A model generated the notes under the pieces. That model ran no database searches and was not told the DNA's origin. It was given only the letters and a program-made list of their open reading frames with translations. From assembly GCA_965204805.1 (NCBI GenBank), contig OZ242013.1:4589232-4653231 (forward strand): a stretch of 64,000 nucleotides of DNA, written 5' to 3'. The translations under genes and the position numbers were made by a program. Of this stretch, positions 1,876 through 30,422 are shown piece by piece. This stretch comes from Dehalococcoidia bacterium. Its GTDB lineage: Bacteria; Chloroflexota; Dehalococcoidia; Lucifugimonadales; UBA3495. Positions within the stretch are counted from its first letter, which is position 1; each line of letters starts with the position of its first letter.

Positions 1876-4800
1876 TCAGTCGCCGCTGAGTTCGGCTACC
1901 TTCTCCTTCAGCCAGCGCAAACCGCCGTTGTTCACCTTCGTCTCGGACACCCAGTCCTCGTCGGTGGGGTCACCCAGGAAGAACCGGGGTATCACCGAGC
2001 CCGTCACCCCGGCCAGCCGGTCCACGTCGTCCTGCACGTCGCCCTTGACCTCGCTGTACTTGATTCCGGCGTCCTTCAGCAGCTTCACCCCTTGGTTGTA
2101 GCGGTCCACCGCGTCGTCTCCCGCGTCGGGGTCGTGGTAGATCACGAAGGAGACGGCGGGTTCACTGGCCGGAGTGTTGGCTGCCGCTACCGCGGCGGTG
2201 GCGGCGCTGGTCAGGGTCTCGGCGTTTCCAGCGTCGTCGGTGAAGGACACCGTTACCTTGATGGCCTTGCCCACATCGGCAGCGACTGGCGTGTAGCTGG
2301 AACCCGTGGCCCCCGATATATTCGCCCCGTCGGCCAGCCACTGGTAGCTGAAGCTGGCGTTGGCCAGCCCGTCGGCGTCGCTGATGCCCGAGGTGGCCAA
2401 CGTCAGTGTCTCTCCCACCTGCGCCGTGCCGCTGATGGTCGGGGCACCAGAGGCAGGGCTGTTGGCCAGCGGTTCCTGGGCCGGGGCCGCATTGGTGGTC
2501 CCGCTGCCCTCGGCCGAGTCGCCTTTGGCTTCTAATCCGGCGATGGTGTGGCGAGCCGTTACCTTGACCGTGTAGGCCGTCTCCGCCACCAGCCCCGTGA
2601 TCCGCTCGCTGGTGGCCGTGGCGTCGGAGCGGGTGACGGCGGTGTAGCTGCTGCTCCCCGTCTTCCACTCCACCACGTAGCCCACGGCTCCAGAGACCGC
2701 CGGCCAGGATACGTCCAAGCTGTCGCTGCTGTCGGCTACCGCCGAGACGGTGACGGCCCCCATGGCGGCCAGGGTGGTCCCGCTGGCCTCGCCCACCGCC
2801 AGTTCCGCGTCCGGGTCCGCCTCGGTGTCGATGGCCGTTACCTGGACGGTGTAGGCGGTATCTGCCGTCAGGCCGGTGACGGTGTGGCTGGTATTGGTCG
2901 CTCCCTCTCCGATGTTGTAGGAACCGGAACCGGTCTTCCACCGGACCAGGTACCGGTCGGCGTCGGTCACCGCCTTCCAGGACACTGCCAGCCTGGTGGT
3001 CTCACCGCTTACCGGATTGACCGTCAGCCCTTCCATCTCCGCCGGTTCCGCCGGCGCATAGGCCGTAGCGCCGCTCATTTCGGAGGTCTTCTCCCTGAGC
3101 CACCGCAGGCCGCCGTTGTTCTCTCCCGGCTGGGACACCCAGCCTTCTTCAGTGGGGTCTCCCAGGAAGAACCGGGGCAGGACCGAGTCGATCACCCCGG
3201 CCAGCCGGTCAACGTCATCTTGCACGGCGCCCCTGACCACCGTGTACTCGATCTCGGCGTCTATCAGCAGCTTGACCGCCTGGTTGTAGCGGTCCACCGC
3301 CGCATCTCCGGCGTTGGGGTCGTGGTAGACCACGAAGGAAACGGCGGGAGTCTCATCCGACTGCTGCTGGTCCGTGGTGCCGCTGGCCGTACCCTCGGCC
3401 AGCAGGCTGTTCTCCGCGTCCAGGGCGGCGACGTTGACGGTGTAGGTGGTGTTCGGGGACAGGCCCGTGATGGTGTAGCTGTTGGTGGTGGCCTGCTGGG
3501 CGTCGCCGTAGTCCCCGGCGCCGGTCTTCCAGCGCACGTCGTACCGCGCCGCGCCCTGCACCTCGTCCCAGTTCACGGCCAGCTGGCTGGGCTGGCCCGA
3601 AACGGAGGTAACGGTCAGGCCGGCCAGCGCCGCCGTTCCCACGCCTTCCGGCGGGCTCTGGCCTTGCCCGGTTTCGTTCGGCGCGTTGGTTGTGCCGCTG
3701 GCCTCGGCGGAGTCGCCGTCTTCGTGGTTGCCTAGCCAGTTGCTCAGCACGGTGACCTTGACCGTGTACGCCGTTTCGGCTTCGAGGCCGGTGACCTGGT
3801 AGGCGGTGGTGCCGCTGGAAACGGTCGCCGAGTTCGTGTCGGTGTAGTCCCCGGCGCCGGTCTTCCACTCCACCCGGTAGCCCCTGACCGTATAGCCGTC
3901 GGAGCGAAGCGTCGGTGCCGTCCACCGCACGTTCAGCTTGGTGGTCTCGCGGTCCGCCGCCGAAACGGACAGCCCGGTGATCTCCCCGAAAGTCGCGCCG
4001 TAGCTGGCGTGGGAGAGGCCGTCGGGCGCAGACGCGGAACCGGCGGCGGTATATGCGATGACCCTGGCCTCGTACTCCGTATTGGGCTGCAGGCCGGTCA
4101 CCCGCAGGACAGGCGACTTCAGCGGCTCGCCCGTGTAGTAGGGGAGGGTGTAGGTCCGGTAGGTCGTCATGTTGTCGGCGGTCACCGTGCGGCGGCTACT
4201 TGTCCCGCAGGTGTCGAAGGTGACCGGCTTCAACTCGATCACGTAGCCGGCCGCGGTGCTCACCGTCTCCCACTCGACGTCCGCGGCCCGGGCGTCGCCC
4301 GCGACGGGATCCAGGTACACCACGCCGGGCCAGCCGTGTAGCGTCACCGTCGCCTCCTGGGCGTGGCCGTCGCTCGCGCCGCCCTGTTGGGTCAGCCTGA
4401 CCGTGTGCACGCCCAGAGCCAGACCACTGACCTCATGGGAGGAAACCTCAGACCCAGCCGTGTGGCTGCGCTCCAAGGTGCTGTACGACTGCGCCCCGGT
4501 CTTCCATTGCACCAGGTAGCCAGTCACTCCCGGCTCCGTCGAGGGCGTCCACAACACCCTCAGCACGTCATCGAACAGCGAATGCTGCCTCGGTGCCAAC
4601 TGGGCGTTGGCGACACCGTTGACGCTGAACAACACGTTGGAGGATGGCTCAGCAGGCCACGAGCCCCCATGCCGTCTGTGGTTAACCGAGTAGCGTTGGA
4701 TGCGGCGGCCGTCGGCGATGGACCAGCCAGCCGCGCCGGTCTCGGCGTGCGAAAGAGTAAGTCTGACGCCGTTTCGGTGGGTGTAGGCACGGCAGACGAC

Positions 4801-7498: not shown

Positions 7499-7610
7499 CA
7501 GAATCTGAGAATATATTAGACACTCCCCATGAAATTGATATAGCAATATCGTGTAATCACTCTTTCATTTTGCGTGTCAATCTTTGTGTCAACCGGCTCT
7601 AGGGTATAAT
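7499..7610. promoter_or_regulatory. Conserved AT-rich divergent promoter block (copy 1 of 3)
   Basis: Near-identical ~60-bp block cagaatctgagaatatattagacactccccatgaaattgatatagcaatatcgtgtaatcac. On the minus strand this reads ..TAATATATT.., a likely -10 region for the leader. It is followed by the direct repeat GTGTCAA-N5-GTGTCAA and a perfect plus-strand TATAAT at 7605-7610. All elements are conserved at 13196-13309 and 27910-28023. Confidence 0.5.
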
Positions 7611-7733
7611 GGGTTCCGGTTTGGGCTCCCGCAGGTAGGATGACGCGCTTGGGCGGTCGCCTCAGTCCCGACCGGTGGGCCGATGTACCGCCATATCCGG
7701 CATCGGGTGACGGCGGCCGGCAACCAAAGCTGA

Positions 7734-7759
7734 GACGGCTCCCGCGTGCGGGAGCCGTC
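7734..7759 (-). terminator. Hairpin terminator after giant gene B (potentially bidirectional)
   Basis: Perfect inverted repeat gacggctcccgc-gt-gcgggagccgtc, 34 nt downstream of the TGA at 7793-7795. On the minus strand it is followed by UCUCAGCUUUGG. Confidence 0.55.
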
Positions 7760-7792
7760 CTCATCCCTTGGTCCTATCTCCGTCAGCGTTGG

Positions 7793-13195: not shown

Positions 13196-13309
13196 CAGAA
13201 TCTGAAAATATATTAGTCAATCCCCATGAAATTGATATAGCAATAACGTGTAATTACATCTCAAATATGAGTGTCATTCTTTGTGTCAATTAGCCGGTGA
13301 GGGTATAAT
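13196..13309. promoter_or_regulatory. Conserved AT-rich divergent promoter block (copy 2 of 3)
   Basis: cagaatctgaaaatatattagtcaatccccatgaaattgatatagcaataacgtgtaattac, then GTGTCAT-N5-GTGTCAA, then TATAAT at 13304-13309. Confidence 0.5.
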
Positions 13310-13503
13310 AGGTTCCGGTTGGGCGCTCCCGGAGGCAGGATGACGCCCGCGGGCGGTCGCCTCCGTGTCGGCTGGTTAGTCAGCGATGATTGCCCTCACA
13401 CCCTGAGCCTGCCTGAAAGCCTCTTCTATTGGCCCCAGTTCCGGCCGGGGGCCGACGTCCCGCTATGTCCCGCATCGGGTGGCGGCGGGAGGCAAACAAA
13501 GCC

Positions 13504-13533
13504 GAGGACGGCCCCTGCACGTGGGCCGTCCTC
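13504..13533 (-). terminator. Hairpin terminator after giant gene D
   Basis: gaggacggccc-ctgcacgt-gggccgtcctc, 11-bp perfect stem, ~28 nt downstream of the TGA at 13561-13563. Confidence 0.5.
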
Positions 13534-13560
13534 ATCTCTTGGCGCTATTTCCGGCAGGGG

Positions 13561-27792: not shown

Positions 27793-27909
27793 CTGACAGG
27801 CGTATGTTGCCACCAGCCCGGCGCATAAGGAACGCCGGGCCGGTGGCCGCAAGGTTCTCTATATCCGGCCTGAAGACATGCAAATTGGTATCTCCCATCT
27901 CCCGGCGGG

Positions 27910-28023
27910 CAGAATCTGGAAACATATTAGTCACTCCCCATGAAATTGATATAGCAATAAGGTGTAATTCAGTCAAAAACTTGTGTGTCATTCTTTGTGT
28001 CAACTTCGCGGTCAGGGTATAAT
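27910..28023. promoter_or_regulatory. Conserved AT-rich divergent promoter block (copy 3 of 3), shared by gene F and the hybrid kinase gene
   Basis: cagaatctggaaacatattagtcactccccatgaaattgatatagcaataaggtgtaattcag. Then GTGTCAT (27985-27991)-N5-GTGTCAA (27997-28003). TATAAT at 28018-28023 lies ~30 nt upstream of the RBS GGAGG (28044-28048) and the ATG at 28053. Confidence 0.55.
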
Positions 28024-28052
28024 CGGTTCCGGTGGGCGCTCCCGGAGGCAGG

Positions 28053-30422
28053 ATGACCCAGGAATTCAGCGATGGAGACCGTTATGACCTGGATGGCCGG
28101 GACCGTCTGTCCCGGCTCAGTGCGGCCAGCCTGCGCATCAGCGAGAGCCTGGACTTCGACACCGTGCTCCAAGAGGTGGTGGACAGCGCCCGTGTCCTGA
28201 CCGCCTCCCGCTACGGGGTGCTGACCACCCTGGACGGGTCGGGACGGCCCTTGGACTTCGTGACCTCCGGCCTGAGCGATGAGGAGCGACGGAGGCTGGA
28301 GGACTTCCTGCCCGAGGGCCTGCTGGTGTACCAGCACCTGAGCGCCCTGGACCGACCTCTGCGCCTCCAGGATTACCCCGCCGACATCGCTGCCCTGGGG
28401 CTGCCCGACTTTTCCCCGGTGCCCATCGGCCCCTTCCTGACGGTTCCCATCCGCCACGGGAGCCAGGGCGTGGGCAACATCTGCCCGGGGCGGGAGGAGG
28501 GCAGCCCGGAGTTCACCCGGGAGGACGAGGAGACCCTGGTGATGTTCGCCTCCCAGGCGGCCCTGGTCATCGCCAACGCCCGGCGGCACCGGGAGGAGCG
28601 GCGGGCCCGGGCAGACCTAGAGACTCTGGTGGAAACCTCGCCCGTGGGCGTGGTGGTCTTCGACGTGAGGGACCGCCGTCTGGCGTCCATGAACCGCGAG
28701 GCCAGGAGAATCCTGGCCGGCCTGTTGGAAGAGGGCGGGTCCTGGGAGCAGTTGCTGGGCACCCTGAGCTTCCGCCGGGGCGACGGGAGAGAGGTGTCCC
28801 TGGGGGACCTGACGGTCTACGAGGCCCTGGGCGCCGGGGAGACGGTGCGGGCCGAGGAGATCGCCATCGGGCTGCCCGGCGGGCGCAGCGTCACCGCCCT
28901 GGTCAACGCCACGCCTATCCGCTCGGAGGAGGGGGAGATCGAGTCCTTCGTGGTGACCCTGCAGGACCTGGCGCCCCTGGAGGAGATGGAACGTCTGCGG
29001 GCCGAGTTCCTGGGGATGGTGAGCCACGAGCTCCGCACGCCGTTGACCTCCATTCGGGGCTCGGCCAACACGTTGCTGGAGGAGGAGTCATCCCTCGACC
29101 CGGTGGAAATGCGTCAGTTCCATCGCATCATCATGGAGCAGTCCGAGCACATGCGGGGCCTGATCAACAACCTGCTGGACGTGGCCCGCATCGAGACGGG
29201 CGCGTTGTCGGTATCCCCGGAGCCTTCGGAGGTGTCATCCCTGGTGGAGGAGGCCCGCAACACCTTCCACAGGACCGGCGGCAGACACAACCTGGACATC
29301 GATCTGGCGCCGGACCTGCCCCTAGTGCTGGCGGACCGGCGGCGGGTGGCCCAGGTGCTGAACAATCTGCTCTCCAACGCGGCCCGGCACTCGGGAGAGC
29401 CGTCCTCCATCGCCGTGAGCGTCCGCAGGCAGGGTCTGCACGTGGCCCTTTCGGTGTCGGACCGGGGCCGGGGCATCTCGGCCGAGCAGTTGCCCCACCT
29501 GTTCCGCAAGTACGCTCGCCCGTACGGCGAGACGGGCGGCCGGGACCCGGGGGCGACGGGCCTGGGGCTGGCCATCTGCAAGGGTATAGTAGAGGCTCAT
29601 GGGGGCCGCATCTGGGCCGAGAGCGAGGGGCCGGACCTGGGCGCGCGCTTCACCTTCACCCTTCCGGCGTTGGAGGAGGGGTCCGGCGCCACCGCCGGAA
29701 CCCGTTCTCGTTCCCGCCGGTCGGGACGGGGCCGGACCCGGGTCCTGGCGGTGGATGACGACCCCCTGGCACTGCGCTACATCCGGGACGTGCTCTCCCG
29801 GGCAGGCTACCATCCGGTGGTGACCCCCAACCCGGACGACGTGCTCCGGCTGCTTGAGGAGGAGCGGCCCCAGCTGGCGCTGCTGGACCTGGTCTTGCCG
29901 GAGGGCGACGGCATTGAACTGATGCAGCGCATCCTGGCCACCACCGACGTGCCGGTGATCTTCGTCTCCGCCTACGGTCAGGAGGAGAACGTCACCAGGG
30001 CGTTGGACATGGGGGCCGTGGACTATGTGACCAAGCCCTTCTCAGCCTCGGAGTTGACGGCCCGCATCCGGGCCGCCCTCCGGCAGCGGGCCGGGGTCAT
30101 ACCAACGGCACAACCCCCGCCCTACGCGCTGGGGGACCTGGCCATCGACTACGCCCAGCGGCGGGTGACCTTGGCCGGTGTGCCGCTGGAGCTGACTCCC
30201 ACGGAGTACGGGGTGCTCTACGAGCTGTCGGCCCACGCCGGAACGGTGCTGACCCACCAGCAGTTGCTGGTGAGGGTCTGGGGCGCGGGCCGCTCCGGGG
30301 ATTCGGGGCTGGTGCGCACCATCGTCAGGAGGCTGCGGGCCAGGCTGGGCGACGACGCCGACGAGCCGAAGTACATCTTCACAGAGCCCCGGGTCGGCTA
30401 CCAGATGCCCGTGGGGGGATAG
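28053..30422 (+). CDS. Hybrid sensor histidine kinase / OmpR-family response regulator (GAF-PAS-HisKA-HATPase-REC-winged helix in one polypeptide)
   Basis: The ORF track gives 28032-30422; ATG 28053 with the GGAGG RBS is preferred. H-box MVSHELRTPLTSIRG. N/G boxes LLSNAARHS, DRGRGI, GLGLAICKGIVEAHGG. REC: RVLAVDDDPLALRYI...LLDLVLPEGDGIELM...KPF. OmpR/PhoB-type trans_reg_C: LTPTEYGVLYELSAHAGTVLTHQQLLVRVWG....LVRTIVRRLRARLGDD...PKYIFTEPRVGYQM. Confidence 0.9.
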   Translation: MTQEFSDGDRYDLDGRDRLSRLSAASLRISESLDFDTVLQEVVDSARVLTASRYGVLTTLDGSGRPLDFVTSGLSDEERRRLEDFLPEGLLVYQHLSALDRPLRLQDYPADIAALGLPDFSPVPIGPFLTVPIRHGSQGVGNICPGREEGSPEFTREDEETLVMFASQAALVIANARRHREERRARADLETLVETSPVGVVVFDVRDRRLASMNREARRILAGLLEEGGSWEQLLGTLSFRRGDGREVSLGDLTVYEALGAGETVRAEEIAIGLPGGRSVTALVNATPIRSEEGEIESFVVTLQDLAPLEEMERLRAEFLGMVSHELRTPLTSIRGSANTLLEEESSLDPVEMRQFHRIIMEQSEHMRGLINNLLDVARIETGALSVSPEPSEVSSLVEEARNTFHRTGGRHNLDIDLAPDLPLVLADRRRVAQVLNNLLSNAARHSGEPSSIAVSVRRQGLHVALSVSDRGRGISAEQLPHLFRKYARPYGETGGRDPGATGLGLAICKGIVEAHGGRIWAESEGPDLGARFTFTLPALEEGSGATAGTRSRSRRSGRGRTRVLAVDDDPLALRYIRDVLSRAGYHPVVTPNPDDVLRLLEEERPQLALLDLVLPEGDGIELMQRILATTDVPVIFVSAYGQEENVTRALDMGAVDYVTKPFSASELTARIRAALRQRAGVIPTAQPPPYALGDLAIDYAQRRVTLAGVPLELTPTEYGVLYELSAHAGTVLTHQQLLVRVWGAGRSGDSGLVRTIVRRLRARLGDDADEPKYIFTEPRVGYQMPVGG

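Follow-up and report, generated by a model that had tools for sequence, protein, structure and literature searches.

Within a 64,000-nucleotide stretch of a Dehalococcoidia bacterium genome (GenBank assembly GCA_965204805.1, contig OZ242013.1, positions 4,589,232 to 4,653,231; hereafter the window), a cluster of giant genes on the minus strand lies back to back with a plus-strand gene that encodes a complete two-component system in one polypeptide. A short AT-rich block with direct repeats separates the two, and further copies of this block stand inside the giant-gene cluster. An earlier note on this DNA had proposed that the sensor-regulator beside the block controls both its own gene and the divergent giant-gene operons. 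Comparative evidence supports this operator idea, and we consider it fairly probable that the block combines two divergent promoters in compact form around one shared operator, which the adjacent regulator binds. The features of the locus are listed below in window coordinates; c0b denotes a divergent fifth cassette of the same cluster, and L007 and L008 the two closest orthologous promoters, from genomes in which the regulator is 87% and 72% identical, respectively.

1876-27451, minus strand: giant fn3/He_PIG-repeat secreted-protein genes, the presumed targets (open reading frames (ORFs), Pfam)
7513-7610: copy 1 block, with the minus-strand −10 at 7513-7518, half-sites at 7540-46, 7551-57, 7574-80 and 7586-92, and TATAAT at 7605-10
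7574-7592, plus strand: GTGTCA(A/T)-N5-GTGTCAA repeat of copy 1, GTGTCAATCTTTGTGTCAA
13210-13309: copy 2 block, with the minus-strand −10 at 13210-13215, half-sites at 13237-43, 13248-54, 13271-77 and 13283-89, and TATAAT at 13304-09
13271-13289 and 27985-28003, plus strand: the same repeat in copies 2 and 3, GTGTCATTCTTTGTGTCAA
27924-27929, minus strand: copy 3, probable −10 TAATAT of the leader/giant-operon promoter (from sequence; CATAAT in c0b, TATGAT in L008)
27951-27957, plus strand: copy 3, putative half-site 1, ATAGCAA, weak, 11 bp before half-site 2
27962-27968, plus strand: copy 3, half-site 2, GTGTAAT, 23 bp before half-site 3 in the five cassettes and L007
27985-27991, plus strand: copy 3, half-site 3, GTGTCAT, at −45 to −39 of the inferred plus-strand start
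27997-28003, plus strand: copy 3, half-site 4, GTGTCAA, at −33 to −27 of the inferred start, occupying the −35 region of the TATAAT promoter
28018-28023, plus strand: copy 3, −10 TATAAT of the regulator-gene promoter (from sequence; TACAAT at the same place in L008)
28044-28048, plus strand: ribosome-binding site GGAGG, 4 nt before the ATG at 28053
28053-30422, plus strand: all-in-one two-component gene, 789 aa, GAF-PAS-HisKA-HATPase_c-REC-Trans_reg_C by Pfam, the proposed half-site binder

Inspection of the sequence placed the three blocks where the earlier note had put them (7499-7610, 13196-13309, and 27910-28023). Each is an AT-rich island in GC-rich DNA, as had been claimed, with a GC content of 0.33-0.37 against 0.65-0.69 in the 500-nt flanks; only four 60-nt segments in the 64 kb have a GC content of 34% or less, and three of them are the blocks. 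Likewise, a perfect plus-strand TATAAT was found 14 nt after the repeat in each block (7605-7610, 13304-13309, and 28018-28023), and the reverse complement of the minus-strand TAATAT(A/G)T at 7511-7518, 13208-13215, and 27922-27929. The spacer within the repeat is TCTTT in the window copies (GTGTCA(A/T)-TCTTT-GTGTCAA). The count of half-sites had to be revised: there are not two but four, in two pairs, with two more upstream of the repeat. Each block thus consists of two outward-facing −10 hexamers 88 bp apart with four co-oriented half-sites between them (consensus GT(G/T)(T/G)CA(A/T)), laid out as ATAGCAA-N4-GTGTAAT, 16 nt, and then GTGTCAT-N5-GTGTCAA. The right-hand pair has a period of 12 bp in all five cassettes, L007 and L008, and the left pair one of 11 bp. 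When start sites were inferred from the −10 hexamers, assuming the usual 7 nt from the −10, which puts them near 27917 on the minus strand and near 28030 on the plus strand, half-sites 1 and 2 fell at −34 to −40 and −45 to −51 of the minus-strand start. Because all four half-sites point one way, the geometry at the minus promoter mirrors that at the plus promoter.

The TATAAT had been described as lacking a good −35. No consensus −35 precedes it, as claimed; the element is weak rather than absent, with TTGTGT 17 nt upstream agreeing with TTGACA at 3/6 positions. With a −35 defined as at least four positions of TTGACA located 16-18 nt upstream of the −10, a full sigma-70 consensus (both hexamers) was found on neither strand of the three window cassettes scanned. 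The −10 hexamers themselves have A at position 2 and T at position 6, as in the sigma-70 pattern, in every full cassette on both strands. Since neither strand carries a complete sigma-70 promoter, both promoters are probably activator-dependent. An Rfam scan of the whole window gave no match, and the block is therefore no known RNA element.

A profile search of the 5.06-Mb assembly revealed that the block belongs to five cassettes and not, as reported before, to three. The two additional ones belong to the same cluster and are found immediately to the left of the window.

C1:4578428-4578809: cassette c0
C1:4573489-4573699: cassette c0b, the fifth and divergent one

The exact motif GTGTCAW-N5-GTGTCAW (14 defined bases) has four sites in the 5.06 Mb, with a fifth at one mismatch; all five are the five cassettes, and none lies elsewhere in the genome. 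The motif is therefore private to the cluster, is not a genome-wide box like the Pho box, and belongs to no wider regulon such as Pho. Alignment showed that the blocks are better conserved than the rest of the ~550-bp paralogous cassettes that contain them (73% identical overall). Each cassette is bounded by the start codon of a giant gene on the minus strand and by a plus-strand ATG and includes a leader of ~420 nt. Each giant-gene operon begins ~420 nt downstream of one block. A DNA search of 30 relatives did not find the promoter block outside its own genome; among the orthologues, the cassette profile matched only in L007 (promoter block only) and, weakly, in L008.

We aligned the five cassettes with the two orthologous promoters, L007 and L008, and, with copy 3 as the reference, compared half-sites 2-4 plus the plus-strand −10 with the remaining columns between the two −10 hexamers. 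Since neither c0b nor L008 had been used to define the motif, both serve as tests. In c0b, 25/27 half-site and −10 columns were identical to copy 3 against 30/67 of the other columns (p=9e-6), and in L008 24/27 against 25/67 (p=3.5e-6); these p-values, and the z-scores, are inflated because the columns were picked after copies 1-3 had been viewed and because many orthologue promoters are related. The heptamers were kept while the spacer between half-sites 3 and 4 changed from TCTTT in the window to TCACA in c0b and ATCTT in L008. At half-site 2, GTGTCAA is found in L008, GTCTAAT in the related promoter L010 and GTGCAAT in c0b, and half-site 1 aligns with ATGTCGT in L008 and ATGCCAT in c0b. The minus-strand −10 proposed in the earlier note also persists despite differing flanks, as CATAAT in c0b and TATGAT in L008, both with the sigma-70 A and T; in copy 3 it belongs to the stretch that the four full cassettes conserve best, and TAATAT is likewise present in L007. 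This phylogenetic footprint supports a function of the half-sites and the −10.

The gene after copy 3 had been called a kinase fused to an OmpR-type winged helix, and all of its domains indeed score above the Pfam cut-off. The Trans_reg_C domain (PF00486) reached 64.5 bits against a cut-off of 26.2 over residues 711-785, the receiver (PF00072) 94.7 bits, HisKA (PF00512) 70.4 bits, and HATPase_c (PF02518) 97 bits. The H-box is intact (SH325ELRTPL), and the receiver has the phospho-acceptor D612 (LALLD612LVLP) and the conserved Lys (TK661PF). The protein thus has the receiver and output characteristics of the OmpR/PhoB family and those of a HisKA kinase. It contains no hydrophobic segment (the top 19-residue hydropathy is 1.15) and is predicted to be soluble. 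The closest solved structures of its receiver and winged helix-turn-helix (REC-wHTH) part are KdpE (6e-36), MtrA, RegX3, PrrA, and PhoP, in full-length alignment; the KdpE entries in the PDB, 4kny/4kfc and 6lgq chain D, match over both domains (E = 6e-36 and 3e-36). No NCBIfam model reached its cut-off for the regulator. It is the only OmpR-type protein encoded within or beside the cluster, and no other OmpR-type regulator was found in the cluster flanks.

Does the promoter arrangement extend beyond this locus? About 190 relatives of the regulator were detectable in contigs taken from one genome per species, and the best 80 were analyzed with 6-kb flanks. They come mostly from Dehalococcoidia/SAR202 metagenome-assembled genomes (MAGs), and many of the isolate names suggest a sponge-metagenome origin. 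In 75 non-redundant 260-nt upstream regions, direct repeats of exact 5-mers peaked at a spacing of 11 bp (95 against 21.5 ± 5.8 in shuffled sequences) and were also elevated at 10, 12, and 22 bp. An exact 6-mer repeat at 10-12 bp occurred in 32/77 regions, compared with 9.7 ± 2.7 in shuffled regions and 14-17 at other spacings. Anchored on the −10, the regions share one plan: a distal pair, 17-20 nt, a proximal pair, ~15 nt, and (TG)G-[T/C]AnAAT, with the start codon 60-110 nt on. On the minus strand, an extended −10 (TGGTAnnnT) beside the distal pair was weakly enriched (17/89 against 9.2 ± 3.1). The view that repeats stand in place of the −35 at the regulator's own promoter is thus strengthened, as this plan recurs family-wide with clade-specific half-sites.

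The half-site type varies with the recognition helix. Half-sites GTGAC/GTGAG go with the helix SRPVRTAVKNLR, GTAAC with (T/R)PMRTMVSKLR, GTGAY/GTAAC/ATGAC with RPMRTIVSKLR, GTKKCAW with SGL(V/I)RTI(V/I)xRLR, and GTGTCA with SGLVRTIVRRLR. The window protein groups with L007, L008, L009, and L010 in the GTKKCAW clade (Shimodaira-Hasegawa-like support 100), and all five members keep such sites at their own −35. The pattern fits co-evolution of helix and half-site without proving it, since both follow the tree; the correspondence is qualitative and confounded by phylogeny, because automated half-site calling for each orthologue was noisy.

The link to giant genes also recurs. A divergent ORF of at least 900 aa lies within 1.3 kb at 20/71 of the orthologue loci for which 5 kb or more of upstream sequence was available, compared with the 4% of ORFs of at least 250 aa in the window genome (G000) that reach at least 900 aa. 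The tested neighbours of the orthologues carry cadherin-like, LRR, fn3, Calx-beta, Big_2, or CARDB repeats; the divergent neighbour at one locus, L011, is a TonB-dependent receptor. Within the window genome, which has 13 full-length paralogues of the regulator with the window's own included, five of the twelve others (par1, 2, 5, 6, and 7) are divergent from 1600-2000-aa proteins with Big_2, cadherin-like, fn3, RTX, or DUF11 repeats across intergenic regions of ~400-600 bp; their promoters follow the two-pair plan with half-sites of their own. These counts support the conclusion that the regulators adjoin giant adhesin-like genes divergently far more often than expected.

The family is unevenly distributed. 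Among the same-genus genomes G005-G022, G035, and G036, six have no copy and the others up to 10, against 13 in the window genome. Several of the same-genus copies have in-frame stops. All same-genus genomes lack the promoter block, and their orthologues of the window regulator do not exceed 64% identity; a differently named MAG (L007) provides the closest relative, at 87%. Because same-genus genomes are without a close orthologue and the block, the module is accessory. Members from other phyla nest inside Chloroflexota clades: L011, L036, L043, and L084 (Latescibacterota), L055, L068, L071, L076, and L052 (Acidobacteriota), L062 (Gemmatimonadota), L070 (Actinomycetota), and L022 (Tectimicrobiota), the last almost identical to a Caldilineaceae copy. 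This nesting suggests that co-resident bacteria have exchanged the gene horizontally, or that some of the contigs were mis-binned.

The five cassettes differ in what their plus-strand promoters face. Those of copies 1 and 2 face no gene, which corrects the earlier reading. In c0b, c0, c1, and c2, homology with copy 3 spans the TATAAT, the 5' untranslated region (5'UTR), and the first five bases of the regulator ORF (ATGAC) and then ends; the next 90-200 nt, with large indels between copies, extend as far as the preceding giant operon's intrinsic terminator. In c0 and c1, the ribosome-binding site is decayed.

7611-7790 and 13310-13560, and C1:4573652-4573800 and 4578761-4578990: orphan plus-strand TATAAT + 5'UTR + ATGAC stretches
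13503-13534, minus strand: intrinsic terminator of the upstream giant-gene operon (12-bp stem, 9 GC pairs, T-rich tail), bounding the ~195-nt stretch after the copy 2 orphan TATAAT

A small gene or RNA behind the orphan TATAAT of these four cassettes is not supported: there is no stop-bounded conserved ORF, the substitutions in the ATG frame are mostly non-synonymous, and the indels are large. The mosaic of indels runs into the terminator and the 3' end of the giant gene before it; an active orphan promoter would produce RNA that is short or antisense to this end. On the simplest reading, the four extra cassettes would stem from tandem duplication of a giant-gene unit that included the whole bidirectional promoter and took along the 5'UTR and first five coding bases of the regulator, without the regulator gene. 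Because the duplicated unit omitted that gene, the plus-strand promoters of the four extra cassettes would be orphans, and because each duplication carried the whole bidirectional promoter, one regulator gene would serve five operons.

Combining these observations, we infer the following mechanism. The minus-strand TAATAT would drive the leader and the giant fn3-protein operon, and the plus-strand TATAAT the regulator gene. A cytoplasmic signal sensed by the GAF/PAS domains would lead to phosphotransfer from His325 to Asp612 within a dimer of the adjacent soluble regulator; its receivers would then pair, and its winged helices would bind the half-sites head-to-tail on the repeats, as PhoB and KdpE do. 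By analogy with OmpR/PhoB-type activators, the repeats appear to be located where such proteins replace a −35. The right-hand pair (−45 to −27) would thus replace the missing −35 of the regulator promoter, with positive autoregulation as the predicted outcome, while the pair on the left, at −34 to −51 of the leader promoter, would tie the giant-protein operon to the same signal.

Several observations weigh against this mechanism, in addition to the inflated statistics mentioned above. Conservation among the four full cassettes peaks over the minus core promoter (27905-27964) and not over the repeats. Half-site 1 agrees with the heptamer at only 4/7 positions, and the 12-bp period of the right-hand pair exceeds the 10-11 bp usual in the regulator family. 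Whether the regulator would activate or repress the minus promoter cannot be predicted from the mirrored geometry. No product was found for the orphan plus-strand promoters of the four cassettes. In L007 and L008, the divergent neighbours are small proteins without a Pfam match and not giant genes, and the L007 genome has a second exact motif site with no −10 after it. Finally, the same genome encodes two classical OmpR-type regulators, whose wHTH domains are intact, as well as twelve paralogues that have related half-sites; any of these might bind instead of, or in addition to, the adjacent regulator.

This last point leads to the alternative that survives best, which we nevertheless regard as unlikely: the block is a real OmpR/PhoB-type operator bound by a paralogue or a classical OmpR-type regulator, so that the adjacent regulator is a target, instead of or besides being the controller. 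Beyond the 13 full-length paralogues and two classical wHTH regulators, it can draw on the fact that the paralogue half-sites are related (GTGAC, GTAAC, and GGTGTC) and that the L008 genome has GTGTCAT-N5-GTGTCAA at two loci, each before a paralogue of the regulator. However, each paralogue promoter in the window genome has its own half-site variant, and these motifs are single-copy there; the GTKKCAW type follows the regulator's own clade across genomes, and the cluster and its surroundings hold no second OmpR-type gene.

Another possibility concerns a near-palindrome, ATTGATA/TAGCAAT (ATTGATATAGCAAT), at 27947-27960 and also at 7536-7549 and 13233-13246, which lies within the 25-mer that the cassettes conserve best, around position −35 of the minus promoter, and may be the site of a second regulator. 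A second, dimeric regulator acting on the minus promoter through this element, which overlaps half-site 1 and the −35 region, would leave the all-in-one regulator in control of its own promoter only. In the four full cassettes and L007, no part is better conserved than the 25-mer around the palindrome, and two Xre-type helix-turn-helix (HTH) genes lie ~7 kb left of the fifth cassette. Yet the palindrome is lost in c0b and L008, where the half-site register is kept, and the Xre-type genes have no tie to the cluster. We judge this scenario improbable as a replacement for the shared operator, with which it can coexist.

A scenario with very little probability is that the heptamers are core-promoter or architectural elements, a minus-strand TTGACA serving as −35 or AT-rich DNA acting like an UP element, and that the promoters are constitutive. 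The reverse complement of GTGTCAA does contain the canonical TTGACA, and the whole island is AT-rich. We rejected the minus-strand TTGACA as a −35, however, because no −10-like hexamer stands 16-18 nt past either copy (the hexamers found there are GTTTTT for half-site 4 and ATTACA for half-site 3) and because other clades place repeats there whose complements are unlike a −35 (GTGAC, GTAAC, and GTCAG) while keeping position and period. We hardly credit the idea that the conservation is a mere trace of recent tandem duplication, with functionless repeats and extra TATAATs that are decaying relics: the 73% identity of the ~550-bp cassettes that contain the blocks, the deletion mosaic without a conserved ORF after each orphan TATAAT and the decayed ribosome-binding sites of c0 and c1 all suit it, but the heptamers and the −10 are kept in c0b and L008 where other bases are only 37-45% identical, and the same plan is found in unrelated promoter sequences across the family.

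The other members of the family in the window genome (G000) are 40-61% identical to the window regulator.

C1:1482605-1484935, 718952-721288, 996247-998577, 999063-1001381, 4044194-4046512, and 1920351-1922678: paralogues, first six
C1:1286882-1289239, 4085463-4087787, 2675818-2678181, 3461174-3463459, and 1283153-1285414, and C2:36251-38578: paralogues, remaining six

The paralogue at 2675818-2678181 appears to be interrupted by an in-frame TGA, with an ORF of only 54 aa from its start. Two others, par3 and par5 (C1:996000-1001600), are convergent neighbours ~0.5 kb apart that have an identical promoter-proximal region of ~150 nt but differ in their distal half-sites; a regulator thus seems to have been duplicated locally and recently, together with its promoter. 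The proximal pair of par4, ATGACTTCTTGTAAC with its spacer included, recurs once elsewhere (C1:2595048-2595062) and may mark a second target or a copied promoter. The L007 contig carries a second regulator paralogue (1990-4404) in the same orientation as the orthologue and 1.6 kb upstream of it; the small intervening genes have no Pfam match. In L008 (1880-2100), ~270 nt separate the operator and −10 from the start codon, compared with a 5'UTR of only 23 nt in the window copy; this insert contains hairpin-type repeats, gtcattcccgcgaaagcgggaatccag and cattcctgcttgcgcaggaatgac, and resembles an inserted element similar to repetitive extragenic palindromic sequences or miniature inverted-repeat transposable elements (REP/MITE-like).

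To the left of the fifth cassette (L005 2571-4292, 5416-6913, and 11049-11693; C1:4562571-4571693), the giant-gene cluster is flanked by a large serine recombinase, a DDE transposase, and the two Xre-type HTH genes, which are in tandem and Xre/MqsA-like; a HEAT-repeat gene also belongs to the flanks. The cluster may lie at the edge of a mobile or rearranging region.

How does the proposed shared operator compare with known systems? In Escherichia coli, the pho box bound by PhoB is a pair of 7-bp direct repeats that have a TGTCA core, are oriented towards the gene, and replace a missing −35 before a good −10, and PhoB is a REC-wHTH protein that dimerises on phosphorylation. In sequence, our block resembles it through its paired 7-bp repeats with a TGTCA core in the place of a −35. 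It differs in its 12-bp period instead of 11, in its 14-nt gap to the −10, and in its second pair upstream, which faces a divergent promoter. We rejected identity with the Pho box, whose 18-bp unit has an 11-bp and not a 12-bp period, also because the motif is confined to the five cassettes; in contrast to PhoB control, it is limited to one cluster without a link to phosphate genes, and the regulator is fused to its own kinase. KdpE gives the best sequence match to the REC-wHTH part, over both domains, but is not fused to its kinase partner, the membrane protein KdpD, and its site and regulon (kdpFABC) are unrelated. A regulator site at the regulator's own promoter is also known from autoregulated two-component operons such as phoPQ and phoBR, whereas here one polypeptide would do all the steps and the operator has been copied four more times with target genes.

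The closest parallel in architecture is found in Bacteroides, whose hybrid two-component systems (HTCS) combine kinase, receiver, and DNA-binding output in one polypeptide and control adjacent polysaccharide utilisation loci (PUL) (PMC11253607). Both are families of single-polypeptide regulators that are much expanded per genome, each member beside the locus it controls or would control. HTCS, however, are anchored in the membrane, sense in the periplasm, and have an AraC-type output, while the regulator here is predicted to be soluble, with GAF/PAS sensors and an OmpR-type winged helix; Pfam detected no AraC/HTH_18 output in it, and the membrane and periplasmic parts of HTCS are missing as well. 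The neighbours also differ, being giant adhesin-like proteins here and not glycan-utilisation genes. In the open-access literature we found no description of a soluble GAF-PAS-HK-REC-wHTH family, or of its pairing with giant surface-protein genes.

Beyond the single locus, we tentatively propose, with rather more doubt than confidence, a "sense-and-display" module made up of a soluble one-protein two-component system, a private operator of four half-sites, and a divergent giant adhesin-like gene. Such a module would have split into many lines with distinct operator codes, with 0-13 copies per genome in one genus, and would occur in several phyla of sponge-type microbiomes. It would be the OmpR-type counterpart of the Bacteroides HTCS-PUL, governing giant surface proteins on display, and its regulon in this genome would have grown by copying the cassette with its targets.

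Giant proteins with fn3, cadherin, LRR, or Calx-beta repeats are a hallmark of sponge-symbiont genomes. We found no account of how the expression of giant repeat proteins is controlled in the open-access literature. Because the operator has a conventional OmpR/PhoB-type arrangement, the shared operator described here extends a known principle rather than overturning one. If it is true, it would provide a clear example of regulon growth through duplication of a promoter cassette and a set of naturally orthogonal sensor/operator pairs contained in single polypeptides. It would also give a handle on when symbionts display their giant proteins, with the GAF/PAS domains defining the signal.

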